A DNA stretch of 63,327 nucleotides, the filler included, from Nemertoderma westbladi (lineage: Eukaryota; Animalia; Xenacoelomorpha), in the NCBI GenBank assembly GCA_032718475.1. It is 2 parts of 2 records of this genome, joined end to end, with 100 filler letters (N's around TTAATTAATTAA, not from the genome) between each part and the next. Parts side by side here need not be neighbours in the genome. Positions count along the whole stretch, not along the records: positions 31,989 to 63,327 come from JAUCBJ010002577.1; 1 more part is not named here. One strand, 5' to 3'. This document shows, one piece after another, positions 6,654 through 58,301 of the stretch. The notes beneath the pieces are model-generated. The model had not been told where the DNA came from, ran no database searches, and saw only the letters and a program-made list of their open reading frames with translations. Made by a program: the position numbers and the translations under genes. Numbering within the stretch: the first letter of the stretch is position 1; every line of letters starts with the position of its first letter.

Positions 6654-6910
6654 TAAATCTGACATTATCTTTGTTCTTGAGGATAATCTTGAGTAGCTCG
6701 AGGTCACACCACATTGCATCCGTACCGTAACTGAACTGAACTGCTGAAATACGAAAAACTGCTCTTAACTTTCGTGATAATTTTAACTGTAACCGTACCG
6801 TAAGTTTGAGTTGGCACCGGTTCTCCGGGTTGCCCTTCAAGCCATTACCCCCTCCTTCGACTAAGAAGATCCCCCAAGATTAAGTCAAGGAATACACACA
6901 ACCTGTAGGA

Positions 6911-21600: not shown

Positions 21601-21693
21601 AACTGACCCATACATCAGACTTTAGACCTTAAGACTTTAAACCAGTTACTATACCGGTACTATACGCTTCCCGTCCCGTACGCGTACCCTATT

Positions 21694-22275: not shown

Positions 22276-23284
22276 TCTTCTCGACCGCTGCACGTAGTCG
22301 ACGAGAATACTGCCAATTCCATAGTTGGCGTCGCACCCAAACCAAGTATAGAGCAGTCTATCCTCGATCTTCTCCACCAACCAGTTGATCCGAATACCTA
22401 CCATCAAGTATCAGAAAGAAGAACCAGTCGTCGGAATGCGAACGTACGTTCCGGCTCGCAATCGATGGCGGATACTTCGAATAGTAACGACGCTGTCAAC
22501 AACCGATATAACTACTTATCATCCTAGTATGGGGATTGGCTCGCCATACCCATGTTATCTGTATGAACCCACCCAGTTACCGTCAAACCGGGTCACCCTG
22601 GTCAATGGTTCTGACCCGTTTTCTTAAAACCTGTAACGAGGAATTATTGGTGATGGTCATTCTGTTTATTAGCCCATTTCTTTCTTGAGATCGACCACTT
22701 AAAGCTTAGCTTAATTTTTCAAAATATTGATACATATAACAACTCTAGACGATTTTTTTTTTCTTTTTGCAAGTATGTCGTTGAGATATGTTTTCTTTTT
22801 ATCTTATATTTCAGACTTTTTTCAATGCCCGTCACTAGTTGGTATGTAATTGGCTGTCTCATTATATAGTCTCATAAACTTAAAATGGATATTCAATTCT
22901 ATCTACTTCAACTGGATCCGCAGTTTTACAAAAAAAAATTTTCGTTTTCTTTTTTGAAAGTATATATAATAATTCATTGAGATACGTTATTTTGTTTATC
23001 TTATCCCTCAGTTTCTTTTTTCAAAATATGACATATATATTATTGGTATAGAAACTTAAAACTAGATACTCAAATCCATTCTAATTTAGATCCACAGTTT
23101 CCTTTCCTTTCGCAAGTATATAATTTATTCATTGAGTTATGTTTTTTGCTTATCCTATCCTTCATATGGAATCACCCATATATTTTCCAAAATATGATAT
23201 ATATTACTGGTATATGTAATTGGCACTTTCCAAAATATGATATATTATTTGTTCTTTAGGTAAAAGAATATTACTTATTCATTA

Positions 23285-26200: not shown

Positions 26201-26637
26201 AGTTTTATGGGGAAACAGCTACGATATTTATACCAACAAAATTAAAACTAAAGTTAACAAAATAATTAGAGCAATAACTTTTAACCACTTCCGAGAACAT
26301 GCGGCCCCGATATACAAATCTCTAAATATTTTGCCATTTAATAAACTTTTTGAATTGGAGACCGCAAAGTTCATGTTCGACATCAAAAATAGAACCAAAA
26401 CTGAAGCTCTAGTAAATATTTTTAAAGCCACATCCTCAATACACCACTACAATACCCGTTCTGCGTCAGCACAAAATTTTTGTTATTCCCCGAGTTCGGT
26501 TACAAATTTCCCAACAATCACTAAAATTTACTGGACCTAAAATTTGGAACGATCTACCACTCGAAATTAAAACCTCAAAAAATAAAGTTATGTTCACTTC
26601 TCGTTTAAAAAAACTATATTTGGAATCACTTCTATAA
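23285..26637 (+). pseudogene. LINE ORF2: PHD finger + APE + RT, several frameshifts
   Basis: C-x2-C...C-x2-C-x4-H-x2-C...C-x2-C; HLNCRSL, TETFL, GDINID, SLIDHI, TDH; NYRPISIL, VDLKKAFD, GTPQGAILSP, FADD. Confidence 0.93.
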
Positions 26638-29519: not shown

Positions 29520-31075
29520 CTGTAGAACTACTTTAAACACTAAAGTTATGAACTGTAGATTTAATTAAACACCAAAGTTATGAACTCTAGATTTAATTAA
29601 ACACCAAAGTTATGAACTGTAGATTTAATTAAACACCAAAGTTATGAACTGTAGATTTAATTAAACACTAAAGTTATAAACTGTAGATTTAATTAATTAA
29701 ACACCAAGTGATTAAACACCAAGTTCATCTGCATGAACTGTAGATTAATGAACCATTTTAAACAGCAAAGTTTTAAACTGTAGATTAATGAACCATTTTA
29801 AACAGCAAAGTTATAAACTGTAGATTAATGAACCATTTTAAACACCAAAGTTATAAACTGTAGATTTAATTAATTAAACACCAAAGTTATGAATTGTAGA
29901 TTTATTAAACACCAAAGTTATGAATTGTAGATTTAATTAAACACCAAGTTATTAACTGTAGATTAATGAACCATTTTAAACAGCAAAGTTATAAACTGTA
30001 GATTAATGAACCATTTTAAACAGCAAAGTTATAAACTGTAGATTAATGAACCATTTTAAACAGCAAAGTTATAAACTGTAGATTTAATTAATTAAACACC
30101 AAAGTTATGAACTGTAGATTTAATTAAACACCAAAGTTATGAACTGTAGATTTAATTAAACACCAAAGTTATGAACTGTAGATTTAATTAAACACCAAAG
30201 TTATGAACTGTAGATTTAATTAAACACCAAAGTTATAAACTGTAGATTTAATTAAACACCAAAGTTATGAACTGTAGATTTAATTAAACACCAAAGTTAT
30301 GAACTGTAGATTTAATTAAACACCAAGTTATTAACTGTAGATTAATGAACCATTTTAAACAGCAAAGTTATAAACTGTAGATTAATGAACCATTTTAAAC
30401 AACAAAGTTATAAACTGTAGATTAATGAACCATTTTATACAGCAAAGTTATAAACTGTAGATTAATGAACCATTTTAAACACCAAAGTTATAAACTGTAG
30501 ATTTAATTAATTAAACACCAAGTTATTAACTGTAGATTAATGAACCATTTTAAACAGCAAAGTTATAAACTGTAGATTAATGAACCAATTTAAACAGCAA
30601 AGTTATAAACTGTAGATTTAATTAATTAAACACCAAGTTATTAACTGTAGATTAATGAACCATTTTAAACAGCAAAGTTATAAACTGTAGATTAATGAAC
30701 CATTTTAAACAGCAAAGTTATAAACTGTAGATTAATGAACCATTTTATACAGCAAAGTTATAAACTGTAGATTAATGAACCATTTTAAACACCAAAGTTA
30801 TAAACTGTAGATTTAATTAATTAAACACCAAGTTATTAACTGTAGATTAATGAACCATTTTAAACAGCAAAGTTATAAACTGTAGATTAATGAACCAATT
30901 TAAACAGCAAAGTTATAAACTGTAGATTAATGAACCATTTTAAACAGCAAAGTTATAAACTGTAGATTAATGAACCATTTTATACAGCAAAGTTATAAAC
31001 TGTAGATTAATGAACCATTTTAAACAGCAAAGTTATAAACTGTAGATTAATGAACCAATTTAAACACCAAAGCTC
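29520..31075 (-). repeat. Inverted, longer copy of the 32-40-bp minisatellite
   Basis: Tandem CAAAGTTATAAACTGTAGAT units, ~1.55 kb versus ~1.0 kb in arm A. Confidence 0.97.
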
Positions 31076-31183
31076 TACACAATTAAGAAAGCCTTTTCAC
31101 CAACAAAGTTTTTGTCACTGATCTGCATACAGAGAGAGACAACACAAAGCAGTTCTATCACCATCACCTCAGAATTAATAGAA

Positions 31184-31581
31184 CTAGACGTCGCAGACAA
31201 TGTCACTGACACTCTCGCTGTAGATCACCTCGCTGGACGAACCGGTGTCCCCAACCTGTAATTGCGTGATGGGCAGTAACTTCTTGTCATCAACAACAAT
31301 GGTCTCGAGACATTCGGTAGAGCTCTGATGACAAGTTGTCGTCCTCCCGGAATTGAATACATGCCTGGTGGCATCGCGATCAGCAAAACACAAATCATAG
31401 CTGGAGACGCCCTTAGATGAGAGCGTTATGGTTTGGGAGCAGCTGAGCGCTCTGTCTATGATATCACGGACTTCCGCATCGCCCTGCTCATAACTCACAT
31501 TGATATCATATCCGCATTTGGCTTCAGGTCCACTTGGTCCAACCTTCTCGCTTACAAAGGTCGCAGGAATATAGGTTTTTC
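31184..31581 (-). CDS. Caspr-like terminal exon, copy 2
   Basis: Mirror of 735-1132; two amino-acid differences (AELR/AEVR, SCTQ/SCSQ), frame intact. Confidence 0.6.
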
Positions 31582-31888
31582 CTTTAGGAAAAAATATAAA
31601 TATAGCAGAAACCATTCTAACATTCTTACTGGTTAAAGCAATATAATAGACCAACCAACCACCCACCCAACCATACCACCCACCCCACCGCTACGCAGCC
31701 ACGGCGCTCCGGCACCCGTAAATCCAACCATACTGACTCCTTAACGAAGGGCATCGAGTGATGCTATTAGCCAACATTGTTAGCAGGGCTGGACTAAGGC
31801 CTAGGCTAGCTAGGCTATAGCCTAGGGGCCCCCGACTTTTTGGGGCCCCCAATTCCAATAACAGGTAAAGGAGATGCAAATTAAAAAT

Positions 31889-31988
31889 NNNNNNNNNNNN
31901 NNNNNNNNNNNNNNNNNNNNNNNNNNNNNNNNTTAATTAATTAANNNNNNNNNNNNNNNNNNNNNNNNNNNNNNNNNNNNNNNNNNNN
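31889..31988. other. Assembly gap containing an artificial TTAATTAATTAA linker
   Basis: 100-base N run with an embedded six-frame stop linker. Confidence 0.95.
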
Positions 31989-34900
31989 TCCTCTGGAGGC
32001 GATGTCAGCTGGGTTAATCGTACCAGGGCAATGTCTCCATTGATCTATCGTTGTGCGACTAAGAATAATGGCCACTCTGTTAGTAACAAAGACGCTGAAC
32101 TGACAGACTTCATTCGTTATATATTCCAACACAAGTAAAGCGTCGGTCCAATAAACAGTTTTCTCCAGTGGATAATCGATCTGTTCTGTTACATTCCGGC
32201 CGATAGCTGTAGCGTATAAAGCTGCTTTTAACTCCGCCCGAGGAACCTTAAGCTTGTTGTTAATCAATGCCTTAGAGGTAACCAAGGCAACTTTGATTCC
32301 ATCCGGAGTTTCGACTCGCAGGTATGCTACTATACCGATTCCCATATCGCTGGCATCTCCAAATACATGGAGTTGATAGGAATACGTAGGGAGAACATGA
32401 CCAAAATATGAACGGGAAATTATAAAGTTCTCGATGGCAGGTAGCGAGTCCTCCCATTTCATCCATTTCTTTAATAGTTCTCCCTTGAGTGGATCGTCCC
32501 ACGAGTGGTTTTCAAGCCACATTTGTTGTACTAAACTCCGAGCAATCAATATAACTGGGCTAATAAATCCCAAGGGATCGAAATAAGTGCTCAGAATACT
32601 TAAACAAATCCGTTTGGTCCGAACTGGATTATCTCGCTGTTTTAGCTGAAAAAACAGGATATCTCTTTCTGTGTCCCACTTCAAGCCAAGCGTCTTGGTT
32701 TCCGGAAGATCGTCATGTATTAAGTCGAGGTCTTTTGATCCCCGGTCTTCTACAGATATTGCTTCCAGAAACTCACGGGAGTTGCTGGTGAACTTCGTCA
32801 ATCGAAATCCACCTCTTTTCAAACACTCAACCGTTCCTTTCGCGACATCAATGGCTTCTTTTACTGATGGAAGGGACTTTAAATTGTCGTCCATGTATAT
32901 GTCTCGTTTGATGTTATCTATCACCTCTTTGGAGAAGGCATCCCGGTTGTCATCCGCAGTGGTACGAACCACTGAACAGGCGTTTGAAGGGCTTGATATA
33001 ATCCCAAAAGCCTGGATGGTCATCCAGTACTCTACCGGTTTCTGGTTGAGATCTCCTTCAGGCCACCACAGGAATCTTAGGCTGTCTCTATCACGATCCA
33101 ATGCCTTGACTTGTAAGAACATTCCTTCTATATCGGAGGCGAACGCGATGGAATATTGTCTTAATCTTAAAAGTATTCCCAACAAAGATTGGAGCAAGTT
33201 GGGTCCTGGTAACAACTCGGAATTGAGGGATTGGCCCATATATAGGGCGGAGCCATCAAATACGACCCGTACTTCATGGGGTTTACCGGGTTTGGGAACG
33301 TAATGATGTGTTAGATAATAAGTTCTTTCAGTTATTGGAGTTCCTTCCGGTACTCGCTCCGCATATCCCTTTGTGATAAATTTCTTCAACTGAGTTTGGT
33401 ACATTTCCTTAGCTGAAGCATTTGCCGTAAGACGTCGATGTAATTGATTGATTCTTTTCTCAGCCAAGGGTCTGTTATTTATAAATCTAGGTTCCCGTTT
33501 TCGGAAGGGTAGTCCGATTTCATATCTACCTTGATCTTTTAAAAAACGTGTGGTTGTTTCCTGGATTTGCTTGGCTCTTTCTTCTTCTATCGACAGGGCT
33601 TTGTCGTATGAATTGGGTTCTACCAATTCTTGGGTAAAGAATCGTACGGCTAGTTCGTCCCGAGTTCTAGCGTTGTAGCGCTCTATCTCATCGTTAAGTT
33701 CGTCATTGTAAGCAATGGGTTCCGATGGGCGAATCAGTTGACATAGATTCACCTGATTTTTCCAAGTTTGGTTTTCGGTAAGTAGGTCCATTGTGTTCTC
33801 TTCATCGAAGAGTTGGTAGATGTCGTCATTATCTGAGGAGTATGGTGTTCCCTCAGTTAGTTCGTCCACCTCACTGCTTTCCACTTCCCAATCGTTTACT
33901 TGATATATTTGTTCGTGTGGCATTCTCTCTTCGAGAGTTCTACGGGAAGGGCCAGTAAAGTACCAACCTACTCTAGTTCTTACCGCATAGGTTTGCAGTG
34001 GCTGTGGTTGAGCAGGCCGTTTCTCTAATGTTTCGAGCGCCTCGTGCGCGTTTTGGTCGATGAGTATTTGCACTCCAGGATAATCTGTCTGGAATCGAGG
34101 TATCTTAAGATGTTGGATGCTCTCATCTTCGTCCCAATTATAAAGGTCTGCTTGAGTAGTAGCAAAGTTCTTTATAGCCACCATTTTTACTGACCTTATA
34201 CCTTGTGTTCCTAACTTATCCTGGGGGGTGGACAACACACCTACATAGTAATCTGCCGTTAGGGTAGATTTCCAAACCTGCATAATTCCTGACATATTCA
34301 ATTTAGTCCGGAACTTGGGTTGTCCAGCAAAGATATCTTCGGCTAGTTCTTGATTGATGAATGTTCCTGTGCTGCCGGAGTCAAGGAGGGCGTTCACTAT
34401 GTAGCTTTTGTTAAGACCGTGAACTCTTACTTGAACTACAGGAAATTCTCTGATTCCTACGTTGGAAGCTGGAGCTTTCCAAGATGGTTGTTTGGCGAAA
34501 GTAGTTGGGGGAAACTCATCGTTGATGTCCTTTTCGTAAGTAAGTGCTCGATACACTGCGGTATTTATTAGATAACAGGATTCATTGGCGTCGGAGAATT
34601 CGTCAGTATAGAATCCTTCCATCTCAGACTCTTGATCAGTGTCGTTTACGTCACTGAATTGGACATGTAGTTCGGGCTCACTTACCTGACTCTGTCTGTC
34701 TCGTTCGAACTCACTGTGTAACAAGATGTGATGTTTCGCGCCACACTTTGCACACTTTATGTCGGAGTAACAGGTTCGCCGTTGATGTCCTGGTCTGAGG
34801 CAATTATAGCATAACCGCTTGTCCCACACGACTGTACGTCTGTCTACAAGGGATTTCTTTAGAAATTCAGCACACGCACTCAAACGGTGGGTCCCGTCGC

Positions 34901-37900
34901 ACAGCGCACAGTTAGGTTTTATGTTACTCACTTTACCTTGGGTAACTTGATGCACTCTCGTTTTTTCTTCGGGTTTTCTTCGGTGCATTCTGTTAGGAGA
35001 CTGAGGAGGGGTCTTGGCAACCTGTTCTCTCCTATCGTTGTTTCGAGCCTTGTATTTACTTACGTCCTTTGAGGTTTTGTCAACATAGTAAGATCGGTCT
35101 GTGTCTTTCCCGCTGTCCTCTTCTTGGGAAGCTTGGCTTTCGCCGTCGTCAGTGTAACACACCGGTGTTACTCTTCTCCTAGAAGTGGGTTTCTCACTTA
35201 CCTTATTTTCCGATGTTTTCTCTCTGGACTGCTTGATGAGTTGTAGTTTTACTTCACCATCTAAGAAAGACATGAGATCAGCCATGGTAGGACTTCGTCG
35301 TTGTTGTTCATTCATGTACAACACTTTCTTGTCCCAGCGTGTACATACTCCACCCTTTGGTAAAGTAGAGACTACGGCTCCAATAACCATGGAACTCTGA
35401 TATTCATGCGACTTACCTAACCAGTCCAGTTGTCTACAGATCTCTTGAATTTCATCGGAAAACTCTATAATCCCGCTACTAAGGAAGTGTCGGGGGGCTA
35501 CTAATTTTGCATACAAATACTTAGCTATGTTATCCTTGTTACCATACCTGATGTTTAATGTATCCCAAACTTGTCTTAATCCATCTGGATGTCCAATAAA
35601 CTTTAACGCCATTAACTTGGGAGGTCCTTCCAAGCACTTGATGAGGAATCTAAGTTTCTCTCCGTTAGATAGTACAGAGTTCTGTATGCTATCTTTGTAA
35701 TATTCGTTGAAAGGTAACCATTTCATCTCATCTCCATTGAATTTGACGATCTCTCCCACTTTGACCGCTTGGCGGGCTTCTGTTCTAGCCATCTGACGCG
35801 TAAAGCTTTCTTGGGCCATCGTGTTATTTAATATCGAATTATCGGTATATAAATTTCTCGGATTATTATCAGGTCTATAGGGAATATCATTAGCAACAGG
35901 CGTATAATCACCCTTAATAGGGTTTGCTATAGGAGTTTCTACTTCACTAGCAGTATAGATGCGTGTAGGCTCCACACCTTGCGCATGTAGTACTTCAGAC
36001 CTAACAGGTTGACACAATGTTACAGGGGGTATTGGTATGCCCTTTTGGATATTGACTAATTTGTCGCGTTCTAGTGCGATACTTTGCTGCACTTCTTGCA
36101 ACTCTGCTCTACCTTCCCTCACTGTTCCCTTAAGTTGGTGGACAGTCTCCTGCATCTGTCCTAGCAGGAGATTCATCCCCCGCCGTCCCTCTTCTACCCA
36201 CTCAACCGCCGAAGCGGGAGTCGCCAACATAGTAGCGGGCTGACGCGGGACGACGGGAGACAAATCTTTGATTTCTCTCTCTGCTATCCGGACAGGGATA
36301 TTCTCTTGGACTGTTCTACCGGGTACAGGCAGTGTAGTACTATGTAAAGGGAATTTAGAGTTAAGCTCTGGAAGTACAGGGGTCTCTAACACAGAAGTGA
36401 CTTTGGGAACGACAGGCCTAATTATTTCAGGCTCATCAACTATTGTAGGGAGTCTTTTGACCTTAATACTTTGGGCTGTAGGTTCTATACTACTCAAGTC
36501 TGTGCTAGCTAGCTGTCTTCTAACAGCTGGGGGCAAATCAGGCAATTTGCGACGGTAAGATGTTTTTCTACGCCTACTTAGATGAGATCTATTTCCTCCG
36601 CCTTCAGGATCGGTGGTCTCGCCTTCCTCCGAGGATGTGTATCCCTGGCGCTTGGGAGTAGATTTTCTCATCATCTGCATTTGATTAGCAGTAAACTGTT
36701 TATTTATACTGTCTTGCGTCTCTTGCAGATTTTCCAACTTCAGTTGGATAGTCTCCTCAGAAGCTCTCTGTTCTGCTTCTGCCACTGCTGCTTTTCTTTC
36801 TGCTTCTGCTTCTGCCGCCTTTCTTTCGGCTTCTGCTTCTGCCGCTTTTCTTTCGGCTTCTGCTTCTGCCGCCTTTCTTTCGGCTTCTGCTTCTGCCGCT
36901 TTTCTTTCGGCTTCTGCTTCTGCCGCCGCTGCTGCTGCCACCTTTCTTTTCTCTATCCATTCTTTCTTTACTTGTTCTTCTCGGACTCTAGTGAGGCGGA
37001 GTTTTTCATCAAATTCAGCTTGGTTTGCAGCTAACATTTCGGCATTGATTGAGTCCAACACAAGCTTGGTTCCTTCACTATTAGGGGAAAGTCCAGACAG
37101 CCGTCTCCTCAACTCTTCGTCTCCTAGGAATCGCTGATAGTCGGACAGATAAATGTCGATAGCGTCTCTAGTTCGCGGTTTCTCGGCGGTCTCTTCGCTT
37201 TCCGCTTGAGAAAGGGTGACATCAGTTTGTTCTTCATAGGTTGATCTCTCAGCCAGCTGGGATTTCCACTGGGCCGTTTCCTGTACTTTGAGACCTACCC
37301 GATGGAACCAAGTTTTGACAGCAACCTGCAGCGACGTGTCCTGTCTTCTTTTGGAAGTTTCCTCAAAGGCTGATAGGATTAGTCGAATGCGTAGGGTTCT
37401 TTCGCGTACTTGGTATAGCAGCTCTTCCTGCTCTTGAGGTCCTTGGGGTTGTCGAAACAGTTGTTCTTCCAATCGCTCCAAGGAGCCGAAGAATCCCTGC
37501 ACATATCCTGCTGCCGACCTCTTCCAAACAGCTGGATCCATTGTATCTTTAGCCACTCCCATCCTGTGTATATCTTCCCAAGTAGCCTCGGACAGATCCA
37601 ACGGGAGTCCGAGTCCGGGAAAGTTCCATTGTGACTCGACAATAGACATCAATTCTTCCCTGGCGTATCCCGCATAATTATCTTGGGTCGCTCGCTTATT
37701 TCTCGCCCAGTCGGCTTGATGTTCCTCCACCGCAATGAATATAGTAGTTAGCACTGCAGCAGGAAGGGTGAGAAGGGGGTCCGAGTAGACAGTAGCAGCC
37801 ATCTGCACTCCGTGTTCAGGGGTCAGCTCTACAGTATCCGAACTACTGGAGCTATCGGGTCGCTGGGAAGTAGGTTCTTGACCAAGATGTTGCTGCGATA

Positions 37901-38114
37901 GGACAACTGCCTCTTGGTTCCGTTTGACCTGTGCCCGAGTGCCTATGATGGACCTATGGTGGATTAGCCTAGGGTCTGATACTACTGGAGGGATGACCTT
38001 TCTTGCAGTAGGAGGTGAGCTGAACTCCTTTCTTAATCGCTCCACACTCCTATCTGTGTCACAGATGGTTGTATCGATCAGACTGTCTGACAGGTTTTGC
38101 TGAGTGTCAGACAT
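31989..38114 (-). CDS. BEL/Pao LTR retrotransposon gag-pol polyprotein (runs into the gap before integrase)
   Basis: Single open frame with gag (KFNGD...W..F), three Cys/His knuckles (CALC..H....C, CYNC....H....C, CAKC...HH.LLH), protease LLDSGS, RT (RVVFDGS, DIEGMFLQV, YMDD) and RNase H (HVFGDAS, PRAELKAA, WTD, NPADIASRG). Confidence 0.97.
36775..36935 (-). repeat. 27-bp coding repeat (AAEAEAERK) x ~5 in gag
   Basis: Visible in both DNA and translation. Confidence 0.95.
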
Positions 38115-38249
38115 GTTTAGCTATACAGTTGAATGTCTACTACTATAGTTTCAGTTAAAGCAAGTCTAGTAATTCAGTATGACCGCAAGCCTAGCGATTT
38201 ATTACCGATACCGTTACTCGGTGTAACGTGATATATATACAATATATTA

Positions 38250-43270: not shown

Positions 43271-43816
43271 GGAGGGACCACCTATAAACTAGACAATCCG
43301 AGTCTACCTTCCGTAGGGCAACCTCCACAAACTCACAGAGAAATAGACACCAGGATCAGGTACATGAACAAAGGGCCTGAGTGATCAACGCACGTATGGA
43401 CAACGAATACGTGCAGTTATAACTCGAAAGAGATAAGCTTGCGCAAGAAATCATCAATCAGCATAGGACGATCGACATCGAGGAACCCGAAAGAGAAACT
43501 GAACTCGAAATCGAGAAACGCAAATGAGAACACGCTAAAGTTAACAAGATACTGATATGGGAGGCAGAACAACGAACCCGGGAAATAATGACCGAAAAGG
43601 TCATGATCCAAAAGAAATGCAAGGATGATGCCAAGTTGGACGATTATGAAACTGCTCTCCTTGATCGAGATCTTCTGATCGAGGAAGGGAAGACAGGTAA
43701 AGGCTTACAGTACATGTGAGTGATTCCATATTTATTGGAAATTTCCAATACTTGAATCGTATCGCGTGTGAAAGTGACAAAATAAGAAGGAGGCAATAAA
43801 CAGTCATCGAACATTT

Positions 43817-45743
43817 TTACAAATTTGGAAAAATTACGTCACCTCTAGCACTGTAACTGTCACCGGTACTTTTGAAGCACATTGGTGAACAGGTGAACGT
43901 AGATATCGTAGTTGTCCAATTGGTGATAAAAAATAATGTGGTTAATGGTCTGGTTTCCACTGATAATGGCATTTGCAAATATCCATTACGTGTATCCAAT
44001 TTTGTGAAAAATTTATTGCCTGTGCCAATTTAGGTTGTTGCTTCTATTGGTGTAGGTGCTGGATATAAAGGTGAGTGTCTTTGGGTCGGCACAAATACAA
44101 ATTGTTTTATCTGGTTAGCGAACTGTTACCATCGGATGGTACCAAATGGCAGGTTCATCGGCGCTTACCAGTTCTATAACGCCAGTGTTAATCATAGAGT
44201 TTGTTGGCGAAGACAAACGGGAATTGTGCGTGCAGTCCTAATAGCAGTGGGTGTGTAATTTCCTTTCAAGTGTGTATATCCATTGGAGTACCAGCTGAAC
44301 CACACATTGGTTGTAGTTCTTCAGAGTCATTAAATACTGTGTTAAAATAGTGTGTAAGTTTATCCCAAATTGCCAATTTCTCAATTTCAGAAGAATTTTG
44401 TGGTATTGAATTGTTAAAATCCATGGTTTGTATCTCTGTATATATTGGCAAGCAAGTTGGTAACGTTAGTGAAGGGTAATCTTAATTCAATTATTTAGTT
44501 ACAGATGCAACAAATGAGTTATTATTATAAATTGGTTCGGGGAAATTGGATAAGATTATTCCTAATTTGCAACAGGTGTCACTACAGTATCTAGGATATA
44601 CCATTGACACCTTCATAAATTGTTTAGACAGTTGTTGCATGCTTAGTACAGTAAATAATTTAATGTCTAAAAGTTATTTGACCAATCTTGCTTATAATAC
44701 CACCATTGATATTTTTGTATGGTTTTTCGTTAGATTGGATAATTGGTTTAATTTCAGCCGAAATACCAAGATGGTGATCAAAATCATAACCTGCAACTGT
44801 CTTGTCAGTTCCAGTTCGAAACCTAAGATGAAAAGAAAAGCTAATAATTCATCTTCATCGATATCTCCGACTGCCCGTCTATTTGCTATAAGTTTTGCTT
44901 TAAATACCCCAGGTGAAATGCCATTCTGTGATGTGGTCAGGAAATTTTTCCAAGCAGTTGATTTTCTGCATAACCAGTACAGGTACTGTATGATGCCAAG
45001 ACTAAGACTATGACACCTGTACAAGTTTTTGGATCAATGGCTGGTGAATTTGTGCAGATTAAATTTAAAAAATCCGGTATCATGGGCAATGAGCCATCTA
45101 TGATGATTCAGGAATATTTGATGCCATCGCATAATTCCTCCCATAGTATTCGCCATTCTGTGAAAAACATGAAGTCAGTGTCCTTGGTAAGACGTTGTGT
45201 GGTGGGGACATCACGTATATTTGTTGGTAAGGGCGCGTTAGCGGTAGGGGTGGTATTGTGAATTTTCTAATTTCTTGATTTGAGAATTGCATCAGCGTCG
45301 TATTGTTTCCTAGCAATACCTCCATGTATTTCATCTTGAATTTCGTCGCTTAAAGCATCTAACTCCTGATGGAGGGCGATGACCTCCTTTTCGTACCGTG
45401 CATAACGTTCACGGCCATCTTCATCCACTGTTGTGATAGTTGCTTCATAGTTTTCAGTAACATTGATGAATGCATTGACCAGGGGCTTGATGTTATCGAC
45501 CTCATCATGAAGATATTTGACATGGACTTCGCGACGATGGGCAGAAGTCCATAGGGCTTCCACGGATTGGTGGAGAGATGTAGGCAAAATGCTTTTGTAA
45601 CACGAATTTGTGGTTTGATCCTGGCGTCCTTTGTGACCTTTATATCAGCCATTGTATTTAAGACTGATATTAGTGCTTTAGTATATTAGTCGCTGTTATT
45701 AGTGCTTAGGATTAAAAGAGACGCTTTTACCCACAATGCGCCA
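43817..45743 (-). mobile_element. Decayed Gypsy/Ty3 LTR retrotransposon internal region (PBS, gag, protease region, RT start)
   Basis: ...CACAACA|TGGCGC LTR-end/PBS junction at 45744/45743; gag-like start at 45652; RT motif DTRNGYLQMPLSVETRPLTT; many stops and frameshifts. Confidence 0.7.
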
Positions 45744-46145: not shown

Positions 46146-46850
46146 CTACTCTACTGGAACGGTTTCCATTTCGCTGTAGGGTTCTATGATTCTTTCGCGT
46201 TTTACCATGAACGGTTTCCAGCCATCAGAACCGTCTCCTGTGGAATACTTCTTACGTTCCATCACAAGACACGGACCCAAATGTTTCTCCTCTAGCAGTT
46301 CGTTGCAACAACCTCTTCCACCCTCTGGATAATACTTATGTTGTTTAGCCTTGCAGTCACCGATGTGTAGAAAAATCTTTTCACCACTGTTACGATATTC
46401 CTTGTGGAACAATGCCGGGGAATCACATGGTAAAGTATCTGGTGGCTGCCCCACAGGGTATGTAGGTTCAACAATCACAATGTTGTTTGTGTTATCAACA
46501 CCCATACATCTCATGCGATCAGTTTCGAATGTCAGTAGCGAATAAAATCGTTTTGACAAAGAACCCCTTTTTCTATGTTCATATATGTATTGAGTTATTA
46601 TCGTTCCCGACTTACAAGCTGCCTCGTTCTCATAACATTGGAAGGTTATGTCGTTATTGTTATTGTCGCTATCGCACTCCAAGTATTGTGCGTTATAACC
46701 TTTTTTAACAATTTTCGTTTCACTTTTACATTTACTTTCGATATAAATTCTTATTTTATCTCCCTTTCTTCCTGTCCATTTGCATTCATCATCTGTCTCT
46801 TCAACGACACCCGGAGAACAACATAGGCATTTTTTGAGAAATTTCGCCAT
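46146..46850 (-). CDS. Intronless 234-aa protein, putative IL-1/IL-18-family beta-trefoil cytokine
   Basis: Intact ORF (an upstream in-frame ATG at 46907 lies in the transposon end). No signal peptide. Ordered motifs EETD, QYLECD, TIITQYIYE, LLTFE, CMGVDN..IVIVE, PPDTL, ALFHKE, KIF and FMV parallel IL-18 LESD, QVLFID, TIFIISMYK, VTISV, LSCENKIISFKE, PPDNI, IIFFQR, MQF and FTV. Confidence 0.65.
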   Translation of the reverse strand: MAKFLKKCLCCSPGVVEETDDECKWTGRKGDKIRIYIESKCKSETKIVKKGYNAQYLECDSDNNNNDITFQCYENEAACKSGTIITQYIYEHRKRGSLSKRFYSLLTFETDRMRCMGVDNTNNIVIVEPTYPVGQPPDTLPCDSPALFHKEYRNSGEKIFLHIGDCKAKQHKYYPEGGRGCCNELLEEKHLGPCLVMERKKYSTGDGSDGWKPFMVKRERIIEPYSEMETVPVE

Positions 46851-47019
46851 TAATAAATTATTTTTAACACTATACAGCGCCCATGTGAAGTTTCCCAGGA
46901 TTCCCATTCCCAGCGGAAAAAAAACCCATTAGAAAGGAATTTGACATTCATGTGTTGCGCGAAGTCCTCTTTTTTTTTTGAGAAGGGATGGTCTGTTGAT
47001 CACTGGGTCGGACGGTGAG

Positions 47020-48160
47020 TGAGAAGGTGGGCGGGTGGGTGGTAAGGTGGGTGGGTGGAAGGGAATGTGGGAAGGTTGATGGGAATGTGGGAAGATAGGA
47101 ATGGGGGAATGTGGGAAGATGGGAAAATGGGTGGATGGGAATGTCTGAATGTTGGTAGATGTAAATGTGGGTAGATGGGTATGTGGGAAGGTGGATGGGA
47201 ATGTGGGAAGATGATAATGTGGGAAGGTGGATTGGAATGTGGGAAGGTGGGTGGGGATATAGGAAGATGGGAATGTGGATGGGAATTTGGGAAGATGATA
47301 GTGAGGGAAGGTGGATGGGAAGGTGGGAAGTTGGGTGGAATTGTAGGAAGATGGGAATGTGGGAAGGTGAATTGGAATGTGGCAATATGGGAATGTGGGA
47401 AGATGGGAATGTGGAAGGTGGATGGTTATATGGGAAGAAGAGAATGTGGGAAGGGGGATGGGAATGTATGAAGGTGGGTGGGAATGTAGGAAGATGGGAA
47501 TGTGGGAAGATGGGAATATGGGAAGGTGGATGGGAATTTGGGAAGATGATAATGTGGTAAGGTGGATGGGAATGTGGATGGGAATTTGGGAAGATGATAG
47601 TGAGGGAAGGTGGATGGGAATGTGGGAAGTTGGGTGGAATTGTAGGAAGATGGGAATGTGGGAAGGTGAATTGGAATGTGGCAATATGGGAATGCGGGAA
47701 CATGGGAATGTGGAAGGTGGATGGTTATGTGGGAAGAAGAGAATGTGGGAAGGGGGATGGGAATGTATGAAGGTGGGTGGGAATGTAGGAAGATGGGAAT
47801 GTGGGAAGATGGGAATGAGGGGAGATGGGAATGTGGGAAGGTGGATGGAAATGTGGGAATATGGGAATGTGGGAAGATGGAGGGAAATGTAGGAATATGG
47901 GAATTGGGAAGGTGGATGGGAATGTGGGAAGGTAGGTGGGAATGTAGGAAGAATGGAATGTGGTAATAAGATTGGAATGTGGGAAGGTGGATGGGAATGT
48001 GGGAAGATGGGAATGTGGAAAGGTGGGTGGCAATATTGGAATGTTGGAAGAGTTGGTGAGAATGTGGGAAGGTGGATGGGATTGTGGGAAGGTTGATGTG
48101 AATGTGGGAAGATTGATGAAAATTTTGGAAGGTGGTTGGATGGGAATGTGGGAAGGTGGC
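47020..48160 (+). repeat. Degenerate (GGGAATGT/GGGAAGAT)n satellite
   Basis: Direct inspection. Confidence 0.97.
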
Positions 48161-48164
48161 CAGA

Positions 48165-51115
48165 TGGTTATTTATTGTTTTGGTTAGAAAAGACAGCCTC
48201 GGTAACATGCACCTCACCCTCAATTGGTAGGTAGCAACATCGTTTATTGTTTTGGTTAGAAAAGCTCGCCTATGTAACCTGCTCCTTTCCCTCATTTGGT
48301 AGGGATCAACAACGTTTATTGTTTTGGTTAGAATAGAACAATCATGTACCTTGATCCTTTCCTACAATTGATGGGTAACAAAATCGTTTTTGTTTTGGTT
48401 AGAAAATGGCGCCCCTGAAATCTTCTCCTTTCCCTCCATTTATAGGTAACAACAACTTATATTGTTTTTGTTAGAAAAGCGAAACCATGTAACCTAGAAC
48501 AACACAGTTTATTGTTTTGGTTATGAGGTGTGTTAAAATGCCTAGGCAATCATTATATACTTAGTAGGTAATCGTCTGAATATTTAGTAAGTAAGAAACG
48601 GATCCGGATTTTTGACGATTTTCCCAGATAAATGATATTAGTGCTATTCGGAAGAAAGATTGAAGTAATACAGTATTTCTGTATGTATTTGGTATTTACG
48701 TAAAAAATCTTAATTGTTATAATAGGAAATTGGGGAAATGATAAGGATTAGCGGTCATTTTAAGTCATATTTGGGACAGAGGAACATTTGGGTGCATTTA
48801 CATTTACTTGGGTACAATATTTTTATTCATAGCTAACACAATAATGTGTACAGTGTATGTATATTCAATAAGAATACCACCGCAATCGTATTTGGATAGT
48901 AAAACGTATAGCCCCAGTAATCCCTTTGTAAGAATTCATCATTACGTAATAGCTTGTTTATAGTGTTAGATTATTGAGTATAGGTCTATTAGAATAGATC
49001 ACTTTCATTACCATATATGGTAATAATTCTCTGAGAAAGGAGCTAGGAGGGCTATATTCCAGCTCACTCATTAGCTTAGCCATTTCGGTTGCTCCAATGG
49101 CAGGAGTTTTTGCTTGACCATTGGTGACTCATTCTTCTTGTTATGTTTTGTACAGTAGATGGAAGTTGTCATGTGATTTTGTTTTGTTGTTGAATTAAGC
49201 AGTAATCTTACTTAGTTTGTTATGATTTTGCTTTGCTTTTGTACTTTCGCTATAATTAATACAGTAATTTGTACCGTGAAAGACTGACCGATGCATGCTA
49301 TTATTATGTAATCAGTTTCCGCTAACTTAACTGCGTTATTTGCTTACTGCCTTTGCAGTACTCTACACCGGCTTACCGCTAGAATGGCACTCTGCGACAT
49401 GGAGTAGACGGCGTAGGAAGTGCCTACTGGGAGCGCGTTTGAGAGCAGGTGGACAAGATGACAACCTGTGGGGTTTCTATTAAGTAAAGGGAAGTGCGGG
49501 CATGTTTTAGGGATCACTATATGGTGGGGCGGATGCCGTGGGGGTTCTGCTTTACACTTGGGATTTGGTGAAAGTTTTAAGTCGACTGACAGGCCGGAAA
49601 CACCTTTCGTATTTTTAGTCTTAATCCAATATTAATGTTTAATCCAATATTAATGTTTAATCCTATATTTCTAAATCAAATTTAGATAGCCATCTTTGCC
49701 ATTTTAGGTAACCAATTTGTAAATTTTTAAATTTTTAACATTTGTAAATAAAAACATAAGTTAATAAGAACATAAGTTAAGTGATTGAAATAAAACATGT
49801 CAGTACTATTTTTTGCCGACAAAATATTAGCTACAACGTTATTCATTTGTTTATTTTGTTTAGTCGAGTGCAGGAAGGTTGGACAGTATATAGACATACA
49901 TTGGCACTCGGAACGCTAGGTAATCCGGTCCTATTGACAGATGTTTAATCAAGGTTTAGCACATTCGCTATTCAGAATTATTAGATATTTTCGGGTAAAA
50001 TTATAAAATTAAATTAGCCCGCGCCCCAGTGCGCACCCTGAATTACAGAATGTTTGTCGACTGATAAGTCTTTACTACTTGAGTAATAAAATTGATTTTC
50101 CCCTTCAGGAGAAAGTAGCTGGTGAGGTTACACATTTGCCACAGTTAGCAACAGCTGTACGCTCGAGTATAGGACGATTTTCGATTTTTAGCAGCGGTTG
50201 GCTGACCTTGGTGAGTGGACCTGCTTTATTCCCTGAAATGGTAACAACATCGATTATTGTTTTGGTTTGGAAATCATGCCGCTGTAACCTGCTACTTTCC
50301 CTCAATGGGTAGGTAAAAACAACATTTATTGTTTTGGTTAGAAAAGCCCGCCACTGTAACATGCTACTTCCCTCAATTTGTAAGTCACAACATCGTTTAT
50401 TGTTTTGGTTCGAAAATGATGCCGCTGTAACCAGCTCCTTTCCTTAAATTGTTGTAACATGCGTTTATTGATTCCCACATTCACATTCAACTTCCCACAT
50501 TCACATCTTCCCACTTTCACATCCACCTTCTCACATTCCCATCTTCCCATTTATCTTCCCTCATTCCCATCCACCTTCCCATCTCCCCACATTCCCATTG
50601 GTTGGTAACAACATCGTTTATTGTTTTGGTTAGAAAAGCCCGCATCTGTAACCTTATCCTTTCCCTCAATTGGGATGTAAAAACAACGTTTATTGTTTTC
50701 GTTAGCAAAATACTGCCGCTGCAACCTGCTCCTATCCTTCAATTGGTAGGTACGAACAACGTTTATTGTTTTGGTTAGAAAAGCGCTAATCATGTAACTG
50801 CTCCCTTCCTACAATTGGTGGGTAAAAACATCGTTTATTATTATTATTATAAATATTTATTTCAACATAACTAATATTGTCATAGCTCTACTGTACGTAC
50901 TCCACTAAATATATCAATGAAGGACAAGATTAATCTATAGCACAAAATATTAGTTAATACCAAGTCGACGTAGTGCACATATTATTATTGTTTTGGTTAG
51001 AAAAGTAACCTGTAACCTGCTCCTTTACCTCCATTTATATGTAACAACTTATATTGTTTGGTTAGAAAAGCAAAACCATGTAACCTGCTCAACACATTAA
51101 CGTTTGGTTAGAAAA
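48165..51115 (+). repeat. ~72-bp tandem repeats (TTTATTGTTTTGGTTAGAAAAG core) interrupted by unrelated inserts at ~48525-50222 and ~50840-50982
   Basis: Core motif at 48171, 48243 and 48315, and again from ~50250. Confidence 0.85.
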
Positions 51116-53640
51116 ATCCCAATTCCATCTTCCCAGATTCCCATCCACCTTCCCATCCATCTTCCCTCATTCCCATCTACCTTCCCACATCCCTTCCCAG
51201 ATTCCCATCTTCCTACATTCCCATTTTCCCACATTCCCATCTTCCGATAATCCCATCCACATTCCCATATTTCTATATTCCCATCCACCTTTCCATCTTC
51301 CCACATTCCCATCTTCCTACAATCCCACCTCTCTTCCCATATTCCCACATTCCCATCTCCCTACATTACCATTTTCCTACATTCCATCTTTCTACATTCC
51401 CATCTTCGCACATTCTCATCCACCTTCCCACATTTACACATATCAATATTCTCACATTCTCATCTTCCTATATTCCCATCCACATTCCCATATTCCCATC
51501 TTCCCATCCACCTTCCTATCTTCCCATCTTCCTACAATCCCATCTCTCTTCCCATATTCCCACATTCCAATCTTCCTACATTCCTACCCATCTTCCCACA
51601 TTCCCATCTCCCTATAATCCCATCCACCTTCCCACATTTACACATATCAATATTCTCACATTCTCATCTTCCTATATTCCCATCCACATTCCCATATTCC
51701 TATCTTCCCATCCACCTTCCCACATTCCCATCTTCCTACAATCCCACCTCTCTTCCAATATTCCCACATTCCCATCTTCCTACATTCCCATCTTCATACA
51801 TTCCCATCTTCCTACATTCCCACCTACCTTCCCACATTTACAAATATCCATATTCTCACATTCCTATCTCCCTACATTCCTACCCACCTTCACACATTCC
51901 TATCTTCCTACATTCCCATTTTCCTACATTCCCACCTTCCTACATTCCCATTTTCCTACATTCCCATCTTCCCACATTTCCATCTTCCTACAGTCCTACC
52001 CACATTCGCACATTCCCATCTTCCCACATTCCCATCTTCCTACCTTCCGACATTCCCACCTACCTTCCCACATTCCCATCCACCTTCCCACATTCCCATC
52101 CCTCCAACATTCCCATTTTCCCACATTCCTAACTTTCTATATTCCCAACCACATTCCCACATTCCCATCTTCCTACATTCCCATCATCCTACATTCCCAC
52201 CTAACTTCCCATATTCCCATCCACCTTCCAATCCATCTTCCCACATTCCCATCTACTATCCCGCATCCCTTCCCAGATTTCTATCTTCATACATTCCCAT
52301 CTTCCCACATTCCCCTCCACCTTCACACATTCCCATCTTCCCACATTCTCACTTACCTTCGCACATTTCCATCCACCTTCCCACATTCACATCTTTTCAT
52401 ATTCCCATCTTCCTACATTCCCATACACCTTCCCACATTCCCACCCACCTTCACATCTTTCCACATTACCATCCACCTTCCCACATTCCCACCCACCTTC
52501 CCATCTTCCTACATACCCATCTTTCCACATTCCCATATTTATACATTTCCATCCACCTTCCCACATTACCATCTTCCTACATTCCCATCTTCATACATTC
52601 CCATCCACCTTCCCGCATTCCCATCTTCCTACATTCCCTCCCACATTACCATCTACCAACATTCCCATATTCATACATTCCCATCCACCTTCCAATCCAT
52701 CTTCCCACATTCCCATCTACCTTCCCGCATCCCTTCCCAGATTTCTATCTTCCTACATTCCCATCTTCCCACATTCCCATCCACCTTCACACATTCCCAT
52801 CTTCCCACATTCTCTCCTACCTTCGCGAAATCCCATCCACCTCCCCGCATTCCAATCTTCTCAAATTCCTATCTTCCTACATTCCCACCTATCTTCGCAT
52901 ATTTCCATCCACCTTCCCACATTCACATCTTTTCATATTCCCATCTTCATACATTCCCATCCAACTTCCCACATTCCCACCCATCTTCCCATCTTTCCAC
53001 ATTACCATCCACCTTCCCACCCACCTTCCCCATCTTCCTACATACCCATCTTTCCACATTCCCATATTTATACATTTCCATCCACCTTCCCACATTACCA
53101 TCTTCCTACATTCCCATCTTCCTACATTTCCTCCCACCTTCCCACATTCCCATCTTCCTACATTCCCATTTTCCCACATTCCTAACTTTCTATATTCCCT
53201 CCCACCTTCCCACATTCCCATCTTCCTACATTCCCTCCCACATTACCATCTTCATACATTCCCAACCACCTTCCCACATTCCCATCTTCCTACATTCCAT
53301 CCCACCTTCCCACATTCCCACACCTTCGTGCAATCCCACCCACCTTCCCACCCACCTTCCCATCTTTCCACATTACCATCCACCTTCCCACCCACCTTCC
53401 CATCTTCCTACATACCCATCTTTCCACATTCCCATCTTTATACATTTCCATCCACCTTCCTACATTCCCATCTTCCTACATTCCCATCTTCGCACATTCC
53501 CATCCATCCACCCACCTTCCCATCTTCCTACATTCCCATCTTCCCACATTCCCATCTTCCTACATTCCCACCGACCTACCCACCAACCCACCCACCACCG
53601 ACCGACATACCGACAACCGACTGACCGACCGACCAACCAA
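51116..53640 (-). repeat. Degenerate (ACATTCCC/ATCTTCCC)n satellite, inverse of 47020-48160
   Basis: Direct inspection; a small block also lies at 50470-50600. Confidence 0.97.
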
Positions 53641-53727
53641 CCGGCGCCCGAAGTTGACTCATTTTGGCTTTCCTGGGCACTCTGGGATTGTTCACATGGG
53701 CCCTACAAATACAACTACCGGTAGAAT

Positions 53728-54694
53728 TGATTATTTATTTAATACACGATAACATACATTAAAATATATATAGTATAACCAATACAGTAGAATTAAGAAA
53801 TACTAAATATAGGTAATCGACAATTTTTCGAGGGAGATCGCCGCCCAGGCTCGAGGCACTTAAAGGGGCGATTTAAATGATTTAAAAGAAGAGAAATTAA
53901 GTGTAAATATATGTGTACATACAGAGTATAGTGATAAATATTGTGATAAAAATAATTTCATTGGTTATTACTTAATAAAATAGGTAGGAATGAAATAAAA
54001 ATAACAAACACAATCACACAACGGATACAAAACCTTAAAAAAAAAATAGTTTAAAAAATAATATAAATAAGTAAAAAGTTAAACGGCTATTTGCACCAAT
54101 GGTCGACCGAACAGTGTGACTTGAAATCGAACGTTAATAATTTACGAGAAAAAATTCGTAGGTTTTTAGCATCAACAATATCTTGCGATAAAGAATTCCA
54201 GAATGGAACAGTGCGGTAGTTAAAAGAGTTCTTACAAAGTTGTAGTCTGCAATACGGAATATGAAGTTTATAGCTGTGTCCACGTAGCCCTCTTACTGGC
54301 GCACGTGAAAAGTAGTTACTAAACGTAAGGTCAACAAGGCCGTGAAAAATACGGTACACCATTTTCAAGTCGAAAATAATTCTCCTAACCTCCAAGGGTT
54401 GTAGAGACAGGCAGGTTAGACGGTCACAATATGAAACATAAGTTAATTTGCACCGACGATACAATCTGCGTGTAAAATAGTGTTGAACTCGTTCGACTAA
54501 ATTTATACCATACTTAGTGAAGGGCGACCAAACAGGGGTACGGTACTCTAAAACCGGTCTAACAATAGACTTGTAGGCCGTTAAAAGTGCCGATTTATTA
54601 CACGATTTAATGTTACGAAATATTGGTTCACGGTCCTTGACATAAGTGTTGGTTCACGGTCCTTGACATAAGTGACCATTATTACCGTAATGTG

Positions 54695-54751
<57 letters not shown>

Positions 54752-56290
54752 AGAGCGATATCTCAGTTATTTATTAATCAATCGAAACAAAATTTGGACA
54801 AAAGTTAGATATAGGGATGGCGAAGGCTCATACAAAAAATTGGGTGTCGAGATGGTATTTGTGCGATGTGAGCGCTATATTTGCGTGTTTTCGCATGGTT
54901 TAGGAAAAAGCTATCTTGTCATAGGGAACGCAATGAATGATTCTGATATTTGGCATGGAGGTACCTGAATTATTTCTAAATCGATTAACGGAGGCCGATT
55001 TTTAAATTTGGACCTATATTATGACCTAATTGAAGATTTAATTAAGGTAATTAATTAGCACTGCTAGTACTGTCTGATTGTCTGCCTGTAGTAGGCATAC
55101 CGGACCGGTACTACCGGACCACTGTAGGCCTATCTACCTATCTTCATACTGTCATAGGTCAGTACAGCAGTAGGTCCTAGCCTAGCCCTAGCAGTAAATA
55201 TAATATTTCGCCATGTTCGCAGGCGATTTCGCACTGACTACCGGTAGGCCTATGCAGCTATGCTATGAGATTAACCGTCCAGTCGTTCAGATGCATATGG
55301 TACCGGTACTGGAACGGGTTACGGTTTAATCCTGCATTTGTCAATTACGACAATACCGGTACGACTTTGAGTACCGCTGTACCGGTACGCAGTAGCCTAC
55401 CGTTACCGGCAGGCGTAGGCGGTAGACCTACGGTGCGATGGTAGCCAGCCGGTAGGTGGTAGGCTTACCGTACCGGTATAAATGTTGGCGGATGGCGGGA
55501 TGACGTCGTTTGGCGCGTAATTACTTACCGGTTGCCGGTAGACGCCTACCCAACTCGTAACTGGTGGTCGTGGTCGTGGTGGGATGAGCATGAGGTCGCC
55601 TACGATGGGAACAAGTGAAAAGGAAACATAGGCCTACCCGAATGCCGAATGAAAACGTATTATTATTGTACTGATTAAGTAGGAGGACCGTGAACCCTCC
55701 AGGCTTGCCAGCTTGTCATATTTATTATCCTATAAGCTTTAGCAACTTGCTGCTTACAATAATTATTAAACTTCAAATCAGCACTAACAATAATACCAAG
55801 GTCTTTGCAGAAATCTTCGCACTTAATTACATTACCGTTTAAAATATAATTAAAATTACTGTTCGATGCGCCAACATGTATAACAGTGCATTTATGAGCT
55901 GCAACGTCTAGCTGCCACTCATTTGCCCATGTCTCTAACAATTTGAGGGCGTTGGCTAAAGAGTCACATTCGGTGGTGGGTGCGTAGAGTTTAACATCAT
56001 CAGCAAAAAGTTTAACATCAATAGGTGAAAGCAATTCAGGTAAGTCGTTTATAAATAGTAAAAAAAGAACAGGACCTAAAACACTCCCCTGGACTGTACC
56101 TGATAAAACAGCACAATAATCTGAAAAAGTGTTACCGATTAAAATACGATGCTTTCTATTTGTTAAAAATGCTTTAAGCCATAACAATAAATCACCTGTA
56201 AAGCCGTAACTTTCTAATTTAGCAAACAATTTCGAAGTGACTACCGAATCGAACGCTTTGGCGTAATCAATATAAATATAAATATAAACA
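53728..56290 (-). mobile_element. 5'-truncated CR1-like LINE (RT and C-terminus), interrupted
   Basis: IDYAKAFDSV, GTVQGSVLGPVLF, FADD, KDLGI; resumes IFRN...IVRPVLEY...LRGHSYKL across the insertion; AATAAATAA-type tail. Confidence 0.9.
54624..55716 (+). mobile_element. Helentron-associated (HINE/DINE-1-like) element
   Basis: Subterminal IR GGTTCACGGTCCT/AGGACCGTGAACC (55684-55696), (TG)n near the 5' end, short 3' hairpin and no TSD. Removal restores the LINE frame ...RIINM|IFRN. Confidence 0.75.
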
Positions 56291-58301
56291 ATTACAAATT
56301 GGAGCACTGTATTTTAAAATATTTTAGACAGATTATTTTAGGTTAGGGAATCCTGTATTTATGGAGACGAGAAATAGGTATTGTGCTTACGTCATATGTA
56401 CAATAAGTGCGGTAACTGTACTGTAGTGTTATGATTTCACTACCAGCTTCCCCCAGGGTATTCATATTCTATCATTGAACACGTGATCTTTTGGGATTGT
56501 AAATGTATTGTATTATTGATATTGAATGACTCAGTCAGTACAGCCTCATTTCCCGATGCCCCTGGAATTATGGACTCTACCAGTCAGACACAAACCATAA
56601 TTTTAGCAGTAATTTAACCCTAACTCTAAGTCTTGAGGCTCTAATCTAAGACATTTTGTGGAATTTCAGACATTTAAGTCTTATTAAGTCTCATTTAAGT
56701 CCAGACATACTGTAAGTAATGTCGGCCGCCACTATATTGTAACCTGTGAGGTCCACTAGAACCGTGGAAAAGTCGCGCCTGTAGTCTGGTTCTGGTATGG
56801 TAGTGTGATATCCCATTCTTGTCAGTTCGATTATATTTTCTACACTGCAGCACCAGAGCACTGGGAATATGGCGGTCGGTTGGAACGTAATGCGGGCCAC
56901 TGCCGAGTTCCACATGCCTCACTCAGGTCAGCTTGGAGTGCGATGCCGGTGGGAAATCGAGTCTTACGTCTACGACTGGACGAGTCGACGAGGATTGCGA
57001 TCTGGGTTTAGCGGCGGCCCTGATCCTGGGATCGCCTGGGGTAAATGGTTGAACGTCGGGCAGAGGTGTATCGCAGCGGACACCGGATTACGTTCTCTGC
57101 GACGCGAAAGTGTGAGGAGAATTCGTTGTCAAATTCGGGTCGGAAGCTGCGGGAATTCTACTGTTCTACGGGAATAAACCGCAGCGGCGGGGCGACTACG
57201 GGCGGATACTGACAGACTGGGATGTAATAAATAGAGGTACTACTTCGATCGAGTTTCTCGTATTCTCGATGCTCGAGGCGGATAGAGAGTTGGTCGGGGT
57301 TGGCGGATATACCGATAGCTGATAGCTCCGATCTGTTTATAAGTCCGACGTTGTTAGTCGGGGTGGATAATGTCGTCGGCGACGATAAAATGCGATGGTG
57401 CGTCATGCAGTCATGTCACTCAGAATTTGAGGAAGTCGACATTGACGAAGTAATTAACGCGTAACGCACAATGTTACTTTAAACAGAGAACACAAACTTC
57501 TCTGTTTGTGTTCTCTGTTTTGTGTACCCCCCCCCCCCCCCCCCCCCCCCCCCTCCCCCCGCCTTATGATTTTACACCCATACAGTATAGGCCCATTTAG
57601 ATAGGATATTTGCTGTTATATGATTTCAACCGATTTACTATACTGCTCTCCCTTCATAGGTAGGCCTACTGCATATACTACTGCATATTATATTTTGTAT
57701 TTTGGCCGTCTTTTTTCAAATTTCTGTTATATTTTATTTTTGGTGCTTATTGATTGCAACTGGTGTATTGTTTTGGTTAGAATCAGCCCTTCTGAAATCT
57801 GTGGTGTTAGTGAAATCCTTGTATTCTTCACATGGGGTAACTAATCTTTTCTATATGCGGCCCCTATGATCGATGTCTCCTCCTACTGTACTTTGGTAGC
57901 ACCACCATGGAACCTCACATTTTGGTTCTCTGGTCCATGAAATTGGGCCAATATTATTTTTTGTGCTACTAAACATCGTCTGGGTTGTCTAAGAATAGCC
58001 AAACAAAATATTTTTAGAATTGGTCCCAAAATGGCTCTGTAATGGCCAAAAGTGCCTTTTTGCGCCTTTCTCCACCAATATTTGTCGGAATTTGTCAAAA
58101 TTTAGAAATATAAGTTCAGAAGACCCCTGCATCCAATTCTTCTGAACGTTTTTAGTTGAAAATTTATTGGGACCATTTTATAACAAAAAGGACCCAAAAA
58201 AGGCCATTTGAACATAAAGCCCCCAAAAAAGGGTTTTGATATAAAAAGGCTGAAATCCCGCTACTCTCAGCTAGTTATACCACCTCTACATGTTAAACTG
58301 A

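Follow-up and report, generated by a model that had tools for sequence, protein, structure and literature searches.

Homologues of interleukin-1 (IL-1) in invertebrates, named IL-1anc, were published in 2025-26 (Fontenla-Iglesias et al., PMC13736523; preprint PMC12338702). According to that work, most members have a PDZ domain at their N-terminus and some are PDZ-less, the domain having been lost repeatedly, while the trefoils are encoded by 3-5 exons with two introns of conserved phase (PMC13736523). Strand 9 largely conserves an (F/L)ES motif, and the authors regard the N-terminal part of the trefoil as its best-conserved section. Most tested members are leaderless and cytosolic or nuclear, and for one sea-urchin protein a cut by caspases on the upstream side of the trefoil was demonstrated (PMC13736523). 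The family escaped BLAST, PSI-BLAST and HMMER; the discovery search relied on PDZ domains, on the (F/L)ES motif and on proteomes already annotated, and very divergent members were possibly missed according to the authors (PMC13736523). We propose that an open reading frame (ORF) within the 63-kb stretch of DNA analysed here (the window; positions are given along the whole stretch) encodes a PDZ-less beta-trefoil of the IL-1anc type, probably as a retroposed copy of a spliced parent, which would be a leaderless pro-cytokine if expressed. We give this reading about an even chance. The layout of the ORF and its protein is as follows.

46146..46850, minus strand: single-exon ORF of 234 amino acids, candidate PDZ-less IL-1anc-type protein (translation, random-sequence test)
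46818..46850, minus strand: basic, Cys-rich N-terminus (C8, C10, C11), a possible S-acylation anchor (from the sequence)
46785..46805, minus strand: acidic linker spanning residues 16-22, in which D20/D21 immediately precede the predicted trefoil, a possible caspase site (from the sequence)
46194..46778, minus strand: predicted beta-trefoil of 12 strands, covering residues ~25-219 and interrupted by insertions at ~39-53 and ~176-190 (ESM neighbours, by-eye threading on Table S2 rows)
46362..46379, minus strand: predicted strand 9, KIFLHI, with LHI where the family has (F/L)ES (by-eye ungapped register with SkowIL-1.2)

Likeness to invertebrate IL-1 homologues

Translation of the ORF gives 234 amino acids and a stop with no internal stops, as an initial annotation of this DNA had stated. 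The stop-to-stop frame holding it spans 260 codons, 26 of which are open upstream of the ATG. Among random 63-kb sequences, 2 of 200 that had the base composition of the ORF and 0 of 200 that had that of the window contained an ATG ORF of at least 234 amino acids, and the codon-position bias is only weakly coding-like (132/5000 for one statistic, 1266/5000 for the other). A hydropathy scan detected no hydrophobic signal or transmembrane segment, the highest Kyte-Doolittle means being 0.41 over 19 residues and, at the Cys cluster, 1.88 over 9, in line with the absence of a signal peptide claimed before. The ORF lies outside any satellite and is not antisense to an ORF of a transposable element (TE), and neither the ORF nor its 3' flank has a second copy in the window.

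The protein was compared by eye with 92 rows of Table S2 of PMC13736523 (71 of them invertebrate; at most 400 letters per sequence). Residues 25-37 fit the pattern W-x-G-x7-I-Y-[IVL] without gaps, as do 11 of the 21 sea-star rows, which makes 11 of the 71 invertebrate rows; both oyster rows have the W and an I-x-I at equal spacing. The Y-L at 56, F-x-x-Y at 70-73 and Y-x-Y at 88-90 stand at the spacing of the family, matching hemichordate and sea-star rows. Residues 143-163 run parallel to SkowIL-1.2 over 21 columns without a gap and with 5 identities, covering strands 8-9 and placing LHI on FES. The ordered set of motifs was found in 0 of 200,000 shuffles and once across the six frames of the window, at this ORF. 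This likeness in motifs and register suggests a relationship with IL-1anc, as evidence that falls short of proof. Of the IL-1anc proteins, the sea-star paralogues AplaIL-1.3/1.5-1.7 and PminIL-1.4-1.10, the hemichordate SkowIL-1.2 and PDZ-less members, AjapIL-1.1, PclaIL-1.2/1.3 and PvanIL-1.2 among them, come nearest to it.

Like the IL-1anc proteins, the ORF product is leaderless, goes unseen by BLAST and HMMER, keeps the register at strands 1-4 and 8 as judged by eye, and has acidic residues immediately upstream of the predicted trefoil. It shares a Cys-rich N-terminus with the amphioxus and some sea-star rows. In contrast to the family, it has no introns and no PDZ domain, shows LHI in place of (F/L)ES and contains the insertions near 39-53 and 176-190; moreover the published neighbour genes are not recognised within the 63 kb. 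GCC2, ESD, TRAF3, EIF2A and IL-1R-like sequences were absent from the 70 and 100 selected ORFs scanned, a scan that short exons would escape. On this basis the protein probably works like IL-1anc, and its membership is not confirmed, because (F/L)ES, the optional PDZ domain and the introns are missing.

The initial annotation had likened the ORF to IL-18 in particular. All seven ORF peptides that it quoted occur in the order it gave (from residues 55, 83, 115, 135, 146, 158 and 213), but the likeness specifically to IL-18 is unsupported: the invertebrate IL-1anc paralogues resemble the ORF most, and phmmer against PDB returned 0 matches at E<=10. Its pairing of MQFES with KIFLH is a mismatch at the best-conserved motif of the family, since the (F/L)ES position is occupied by LHI. 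What the ORF does have in common with vertebrate IL-18 and IL-1beta is the lack of a leader, a Phe at the strand-8 position and a short acidic pro-piece that ends in Asp before the predicted trefoil, comparable to the IL-18 LESD site (PMC12108812). Unlike both vertebrate cytokines it is intronless, lacks the 'FES-PG-WF' signature described there (PMC12108812) and matches nothing in PDB or Pfam at E<=10.

Fold evidence and other beta-trefoil families

Pfam contained no family matching the whole protein or four sub-regions at E<=10 (HMMER filters on), and phmmer found 0 PDB sequences at the same threshold. PHROGs gave no match, and no relative was recovered from 5.8 billion proteins of near and longer lengths, from 1.84 billion representative proteins or from viral and metagenome contigs; an exact look-up of two start variants was likewise without a match. 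Silence of HMMER and BLAST would be expected of an IL-1anc protein, as that family itself escapes such searches. Structure prediction, recommended in the initial annotation, gave single-sequence AlphaFold models with mean confidence values (pLDDT) of 35.6 and 32.4, too low to confirm a fold, and fold searches on these models were uninformative, IL-1 and other trefoils not being among the matches listed.

More was obtained from the ESM Atlas. The family-bearing neighbours in a first search were CDtoxinA, RicinB_2, I66, AbfB, CCL2-like and Fascin at 0.86, and a second search, in which these families were skipped, returned FRG1, MIR/Ins145 and CFAP161 at 0.80-0.87. In both searches 10 of the 10 best named neighbours share a family or clan; this is all that the search itself states, and we take all of these families to be of the beta-trefoil type. 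The neighbours count as leads, with scores of 0.80-0.87, a recognition value of 1723 and 58-90 of 256 features shared, where 9 in 10 true family members share at least 170. An IL-1-type, leaderless beta-trefoil, as claimed initially, is still the best reading in view of the language-model neighbours and the by-eye IL-1anc registers. Best matches to FGF, ricin or fascin had been named in advance as a result that would speak against it; the Atlas comes close to this outcome by naming ricin-like, fascin, FRG1 and MIR families, yet with only 58-90 of 256 features in common.

Several observations weigh against the proposed IL-1anc-type retrocopy. The motifs were chosen after both sides had been viewed, the matching sea-star rows come from a single clade, and 2 further sites in the window carry the strand-1 motif by itself. 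Neither [FL]ES nor [FL][EQ]S exists anywhere in the 234 residues, no PDZ domain is detected by Pfam or by pattern, with just 24 residues upstream of the predicted trefoil, and the predicted trefoil lies wholly inside one open frame without introns. No IL-1 cluster is among the Atlas neighbours listed. An internal three-fold repeat was considered as support for a trefoil and rejected, as the scores at unit register (22-24) fall below the shuffle mean; the top off-diagonal score, 37, which 60 of 2000 shuffles reach, lies at an offset that does not correspond to a trefoil unit. With regard to retroposition, no run of five or more A residues marks a poly(A) scar within 446 bp past the stop on its 3' side, and the flanks share just two 7-bp direct repeats, which make no convincing target-site duplication.

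The main rival is another trefoil family, such as a divergent retroposed fibroblast growth factor (FGF) or an intracellular FRG1-, fascin-, MIR- or lectin-like protein, which would take part in growth signalling or bind actin or glycans instead of acting as an IL-1; we consider it unlikely, if quite conceivable. In its favour are the absence of (F/L)ES and the Atlas result, in which every named neighbour is a non-IL-1 trefoil. Some strands of the ORF also seem to fit an FGF register. Presumably invariant in FGFs are a Cys and a Glu around strand 8; both are absent from the ORF, and this counts against an FGF. Among invertebrates, beta-trefoil ligand genes that are intronless, divergent and probably retroposed have a precedent in appendicularians, namely Fgf9/16/20b-f within their highly divergent Fgf9/16/20 genes, which nonetheless reach 1e-7 to 1e-13 against the FGF model of Pfam (bioRxiv 10.1101/2024.08.30.610304). 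The ORF differs from these genes in that neither the whole protein nor any of the four parts matches the Pfam FGF core model, or any other Pfam family, at E<=10. A typical FGF is thus disfavoured, because even divergent FGFs are still recognised by Pfam, and the Atlas neighbours as a group fall well below the number of features shared by true members.

Origin of the frame and its flanking elements

The ORF lies between two mobile-element remnants.

46875..53705, no strand assigned: element like a terminal-inverted-repeat (TIR) or foldback transposon, with diverged inverted ends; it holds GGGAATGT satellite arrays in inverted orientation as well as 72-bp tandem repeats
43800..45743, minus strand: decayed Gypsy-like gag-protease-reverse transcriptase (RT) remnant, co-oriented with the ORF (by-eye three-frame translation)

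Repeats on both sides had been noted initially and are confirmed, as satellites and an inverted-end element on one side and a decayed gag-pol-like stretch on the other. The 6.8-kb element lies on the 5' side of the ORF, its left end 24 bp from the ATG. Satellite arrays occupy 47020-48490 within it, the 72-bp tandem repeats form two direct blocks, and an ACCG microsatellite lies close to one of its ends; it is without a clear target-site duplication. A search with the pattern of its ends gave 5 metagenome matches, none of them similar to the window or the protein, and 0 viral matches. Upstream sites resembling an NF-kB consensus were discarded as evidence of a promoter: one one-mismatch site in 170 bp compares with a background of 0.45-2.0 per kb and falls inside the element end. 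The Gypsy-like remnant starts ~400 bp past the ORF stop, where ...CAACA is directly followed by TGGCGCA, similar to a primer binding site (PBS), and then by a gag-like ATG at 45652. Its frames carry 27-35 stops each, with the longest open run at 97-125 codons. None of its pieces has a Pfam match, PDB gives no more than a weak match to the RT piece (E=1), and a second long terminal repeat (LTR) is absent from the window. A palindrome after the ORF stop was tested and dropped (z = -0.21).

A retroposed mRNA copy is a plausible and the likeliest origin of the ORF, because the TIR-like element stops 24 bp short of the ATG and the Gypsy-like one begins ~400 bp after the stop; such an origin would explain both the lack of introns and the missing space for a promoter. 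The initial suggestion of retroposition from the lack of introns is plausible, although no poly(A) scar and no convincing target-site duplication were found. Because the ORF is intact while its neighbour has decayed, it appears to be under selection or younger than that decay.

Alternatively, an IL-1anc-like gene could have lost its introns in place, or the ORF could be a last large exon whose 5' exons, possibly encoding a PDZ domain, lie beyond the 6.8-kb element. The missing poly(A) scar agrees with this, as do the 26 open codons that precede the ATG and an AG located 19 nt upstream. We nevertheless judge a non-retrocopy to be improbable: the candidate acceptors are poor in pyrimidines (4-7 of 15), no PDZ-like match occurs upstream on the minus strand, the published trefoils are split over 3-5 exons, and the Cys-rich start after the ATG resembles the true N-termini of amphioxus and sea-star rows (PMC13736523).

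An accessory ORF of a mobile element, Gypsy-like or bounded by the inverted ends, trefoil-like or not and without an immune role in the host, seems more doubtful again. The ORF is indeed intronless, has the orientation of the Gypsy-like gag and is sandwiched by element ends at 24 bp and ~400 bp, but it lies outside the inverted-end pair, it is intact next to a heavily decayed neighbour, and the window holds neither another copy of it nor another LTR. Viral and metagenomic relatives are missing too, the five matches to the element ends showing no likeness to either the protein or the window. A frame open by chance in non-coding DNA, which the weak codon bias, the low language-model recognition and the lack of a homologue in every library searched would allow, is very improbable given that such an ORF arose in just 0-2 of 200 random sequences and that this one stands neither antisense to a TE ORF nor within a satellite, and shows an ordered beta-strand pattern with family-bearing neighbours that are trefoils only.

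Possible action of the protein and the rest of the window

If the ORF is an IL-1anc-type retrocopy, its product would be made in the cytosol and perhaps held at the membrane by acylation of C8, C10 or C11. A caspase-type cut after D20 or D21 could free the trefoil, from about residue 22, which might exit the cell by unconventional secretion and engage an Ig-TIR receptor. The loss of (F/L)ES, together with a Cys-containing insertion that follows strand 10, would make it plausible that the protein uses receptors differently or serves as an antagonist. Transcription would have to start within the element at 46875-53705 or at a distant 5' exon, because only 24 bp separate the ATG from the element end; the retrocopy may also be young and silent. 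Several IL-1anc proteins of amphioxus and sea stars start with a Gly/Cys-rich, acylation-like sequence in Table S2, and the term 'palmitoyl' is absent from the text and 7 supplements of PMC13736523. The Cys-rich leader that the ORF shares with amphioxus and sea-star members suggests a step of membrane tethering and release.

The premise of the initial annotation that such genes are poorly characterised in non-vertebrates is out of date since the publications of 2025-26, and with invertebrate IL-1s already in print current knowledge is not overturned. If the family call holds, the ORF is a new intronless variant of the known IL-1anc family. In PMC13736523 'intronless' has 0 occurrences in the main text and 'retro' 0 in the main text and 7 supplements (keyword search), and no intronless or retroposed invertebrate IL-1 is among the papers listed by a literature search outside subscription journals. 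A PDZ-less, FES-less and intronless member would mark a blind spot of the published search, some calls of IL-1 as 'absent' from a lineage would possibly be wrong, and IL-1 ligands could multiply through retroposition, as appendicularian FGFs appear to have done in the material cited above. A bolder version, which we regard as distinctly unlikely, would make the ORF the first intronless retroposed IL-1-type cytokine, having shed PDZ and FES, with a lipid-anchor leader, a caspase-type site and a transposon-end promoter, acting membrane-tethered or as an antagonist in a lineage possibly without known IL-1anc.

Outside the ORF the window consists mostly of transposons and satellites, including tandem arrays; Rfam families and tRNA genes were not found in it. 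Further features are listed below.

428-7436 and 18611-31888, inverted: large inverted segmental duplication, 88-97% identity in blocks
6884-8682, plus strand, with a partial copy at 18513-19163, minus strand: two overlapping ORFs, Ulp1/C48 protease-like (Peptidase_C48 E=0.0099, below the cut-off)
31941-38120, minus strand: BEL/Pao gag-pol, >2,000 open codons, ending at an assembly gap (Peptidase_A17 E=2.8e-36, DUF1759)
10683-13235, plus strand; 23264-26540, plus strand; 54087-56313, minus strand: three frameshifted endonuclease/RT elements of the long interspersed nuclear element (LINE) type (Pfam scan of window ORFs)

The inverted duplication carries paired 168-codon ORFs (626-1132 and 31184-31690) with no match in Pfam, PDB or longer proteins; by eye they look CASPR/neurexin-IV-like. 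The Ulp1/C48-like ORFs are probably part of a DNA transposon, and the partial copy at 18513-19163 adjoins BEL-like sequence. The BEL/Pao element is apparently young. CpG is undepleted in the LINEs of the window (observed/expected 0.99-1.07), which would fit an invertebrate animal genome.
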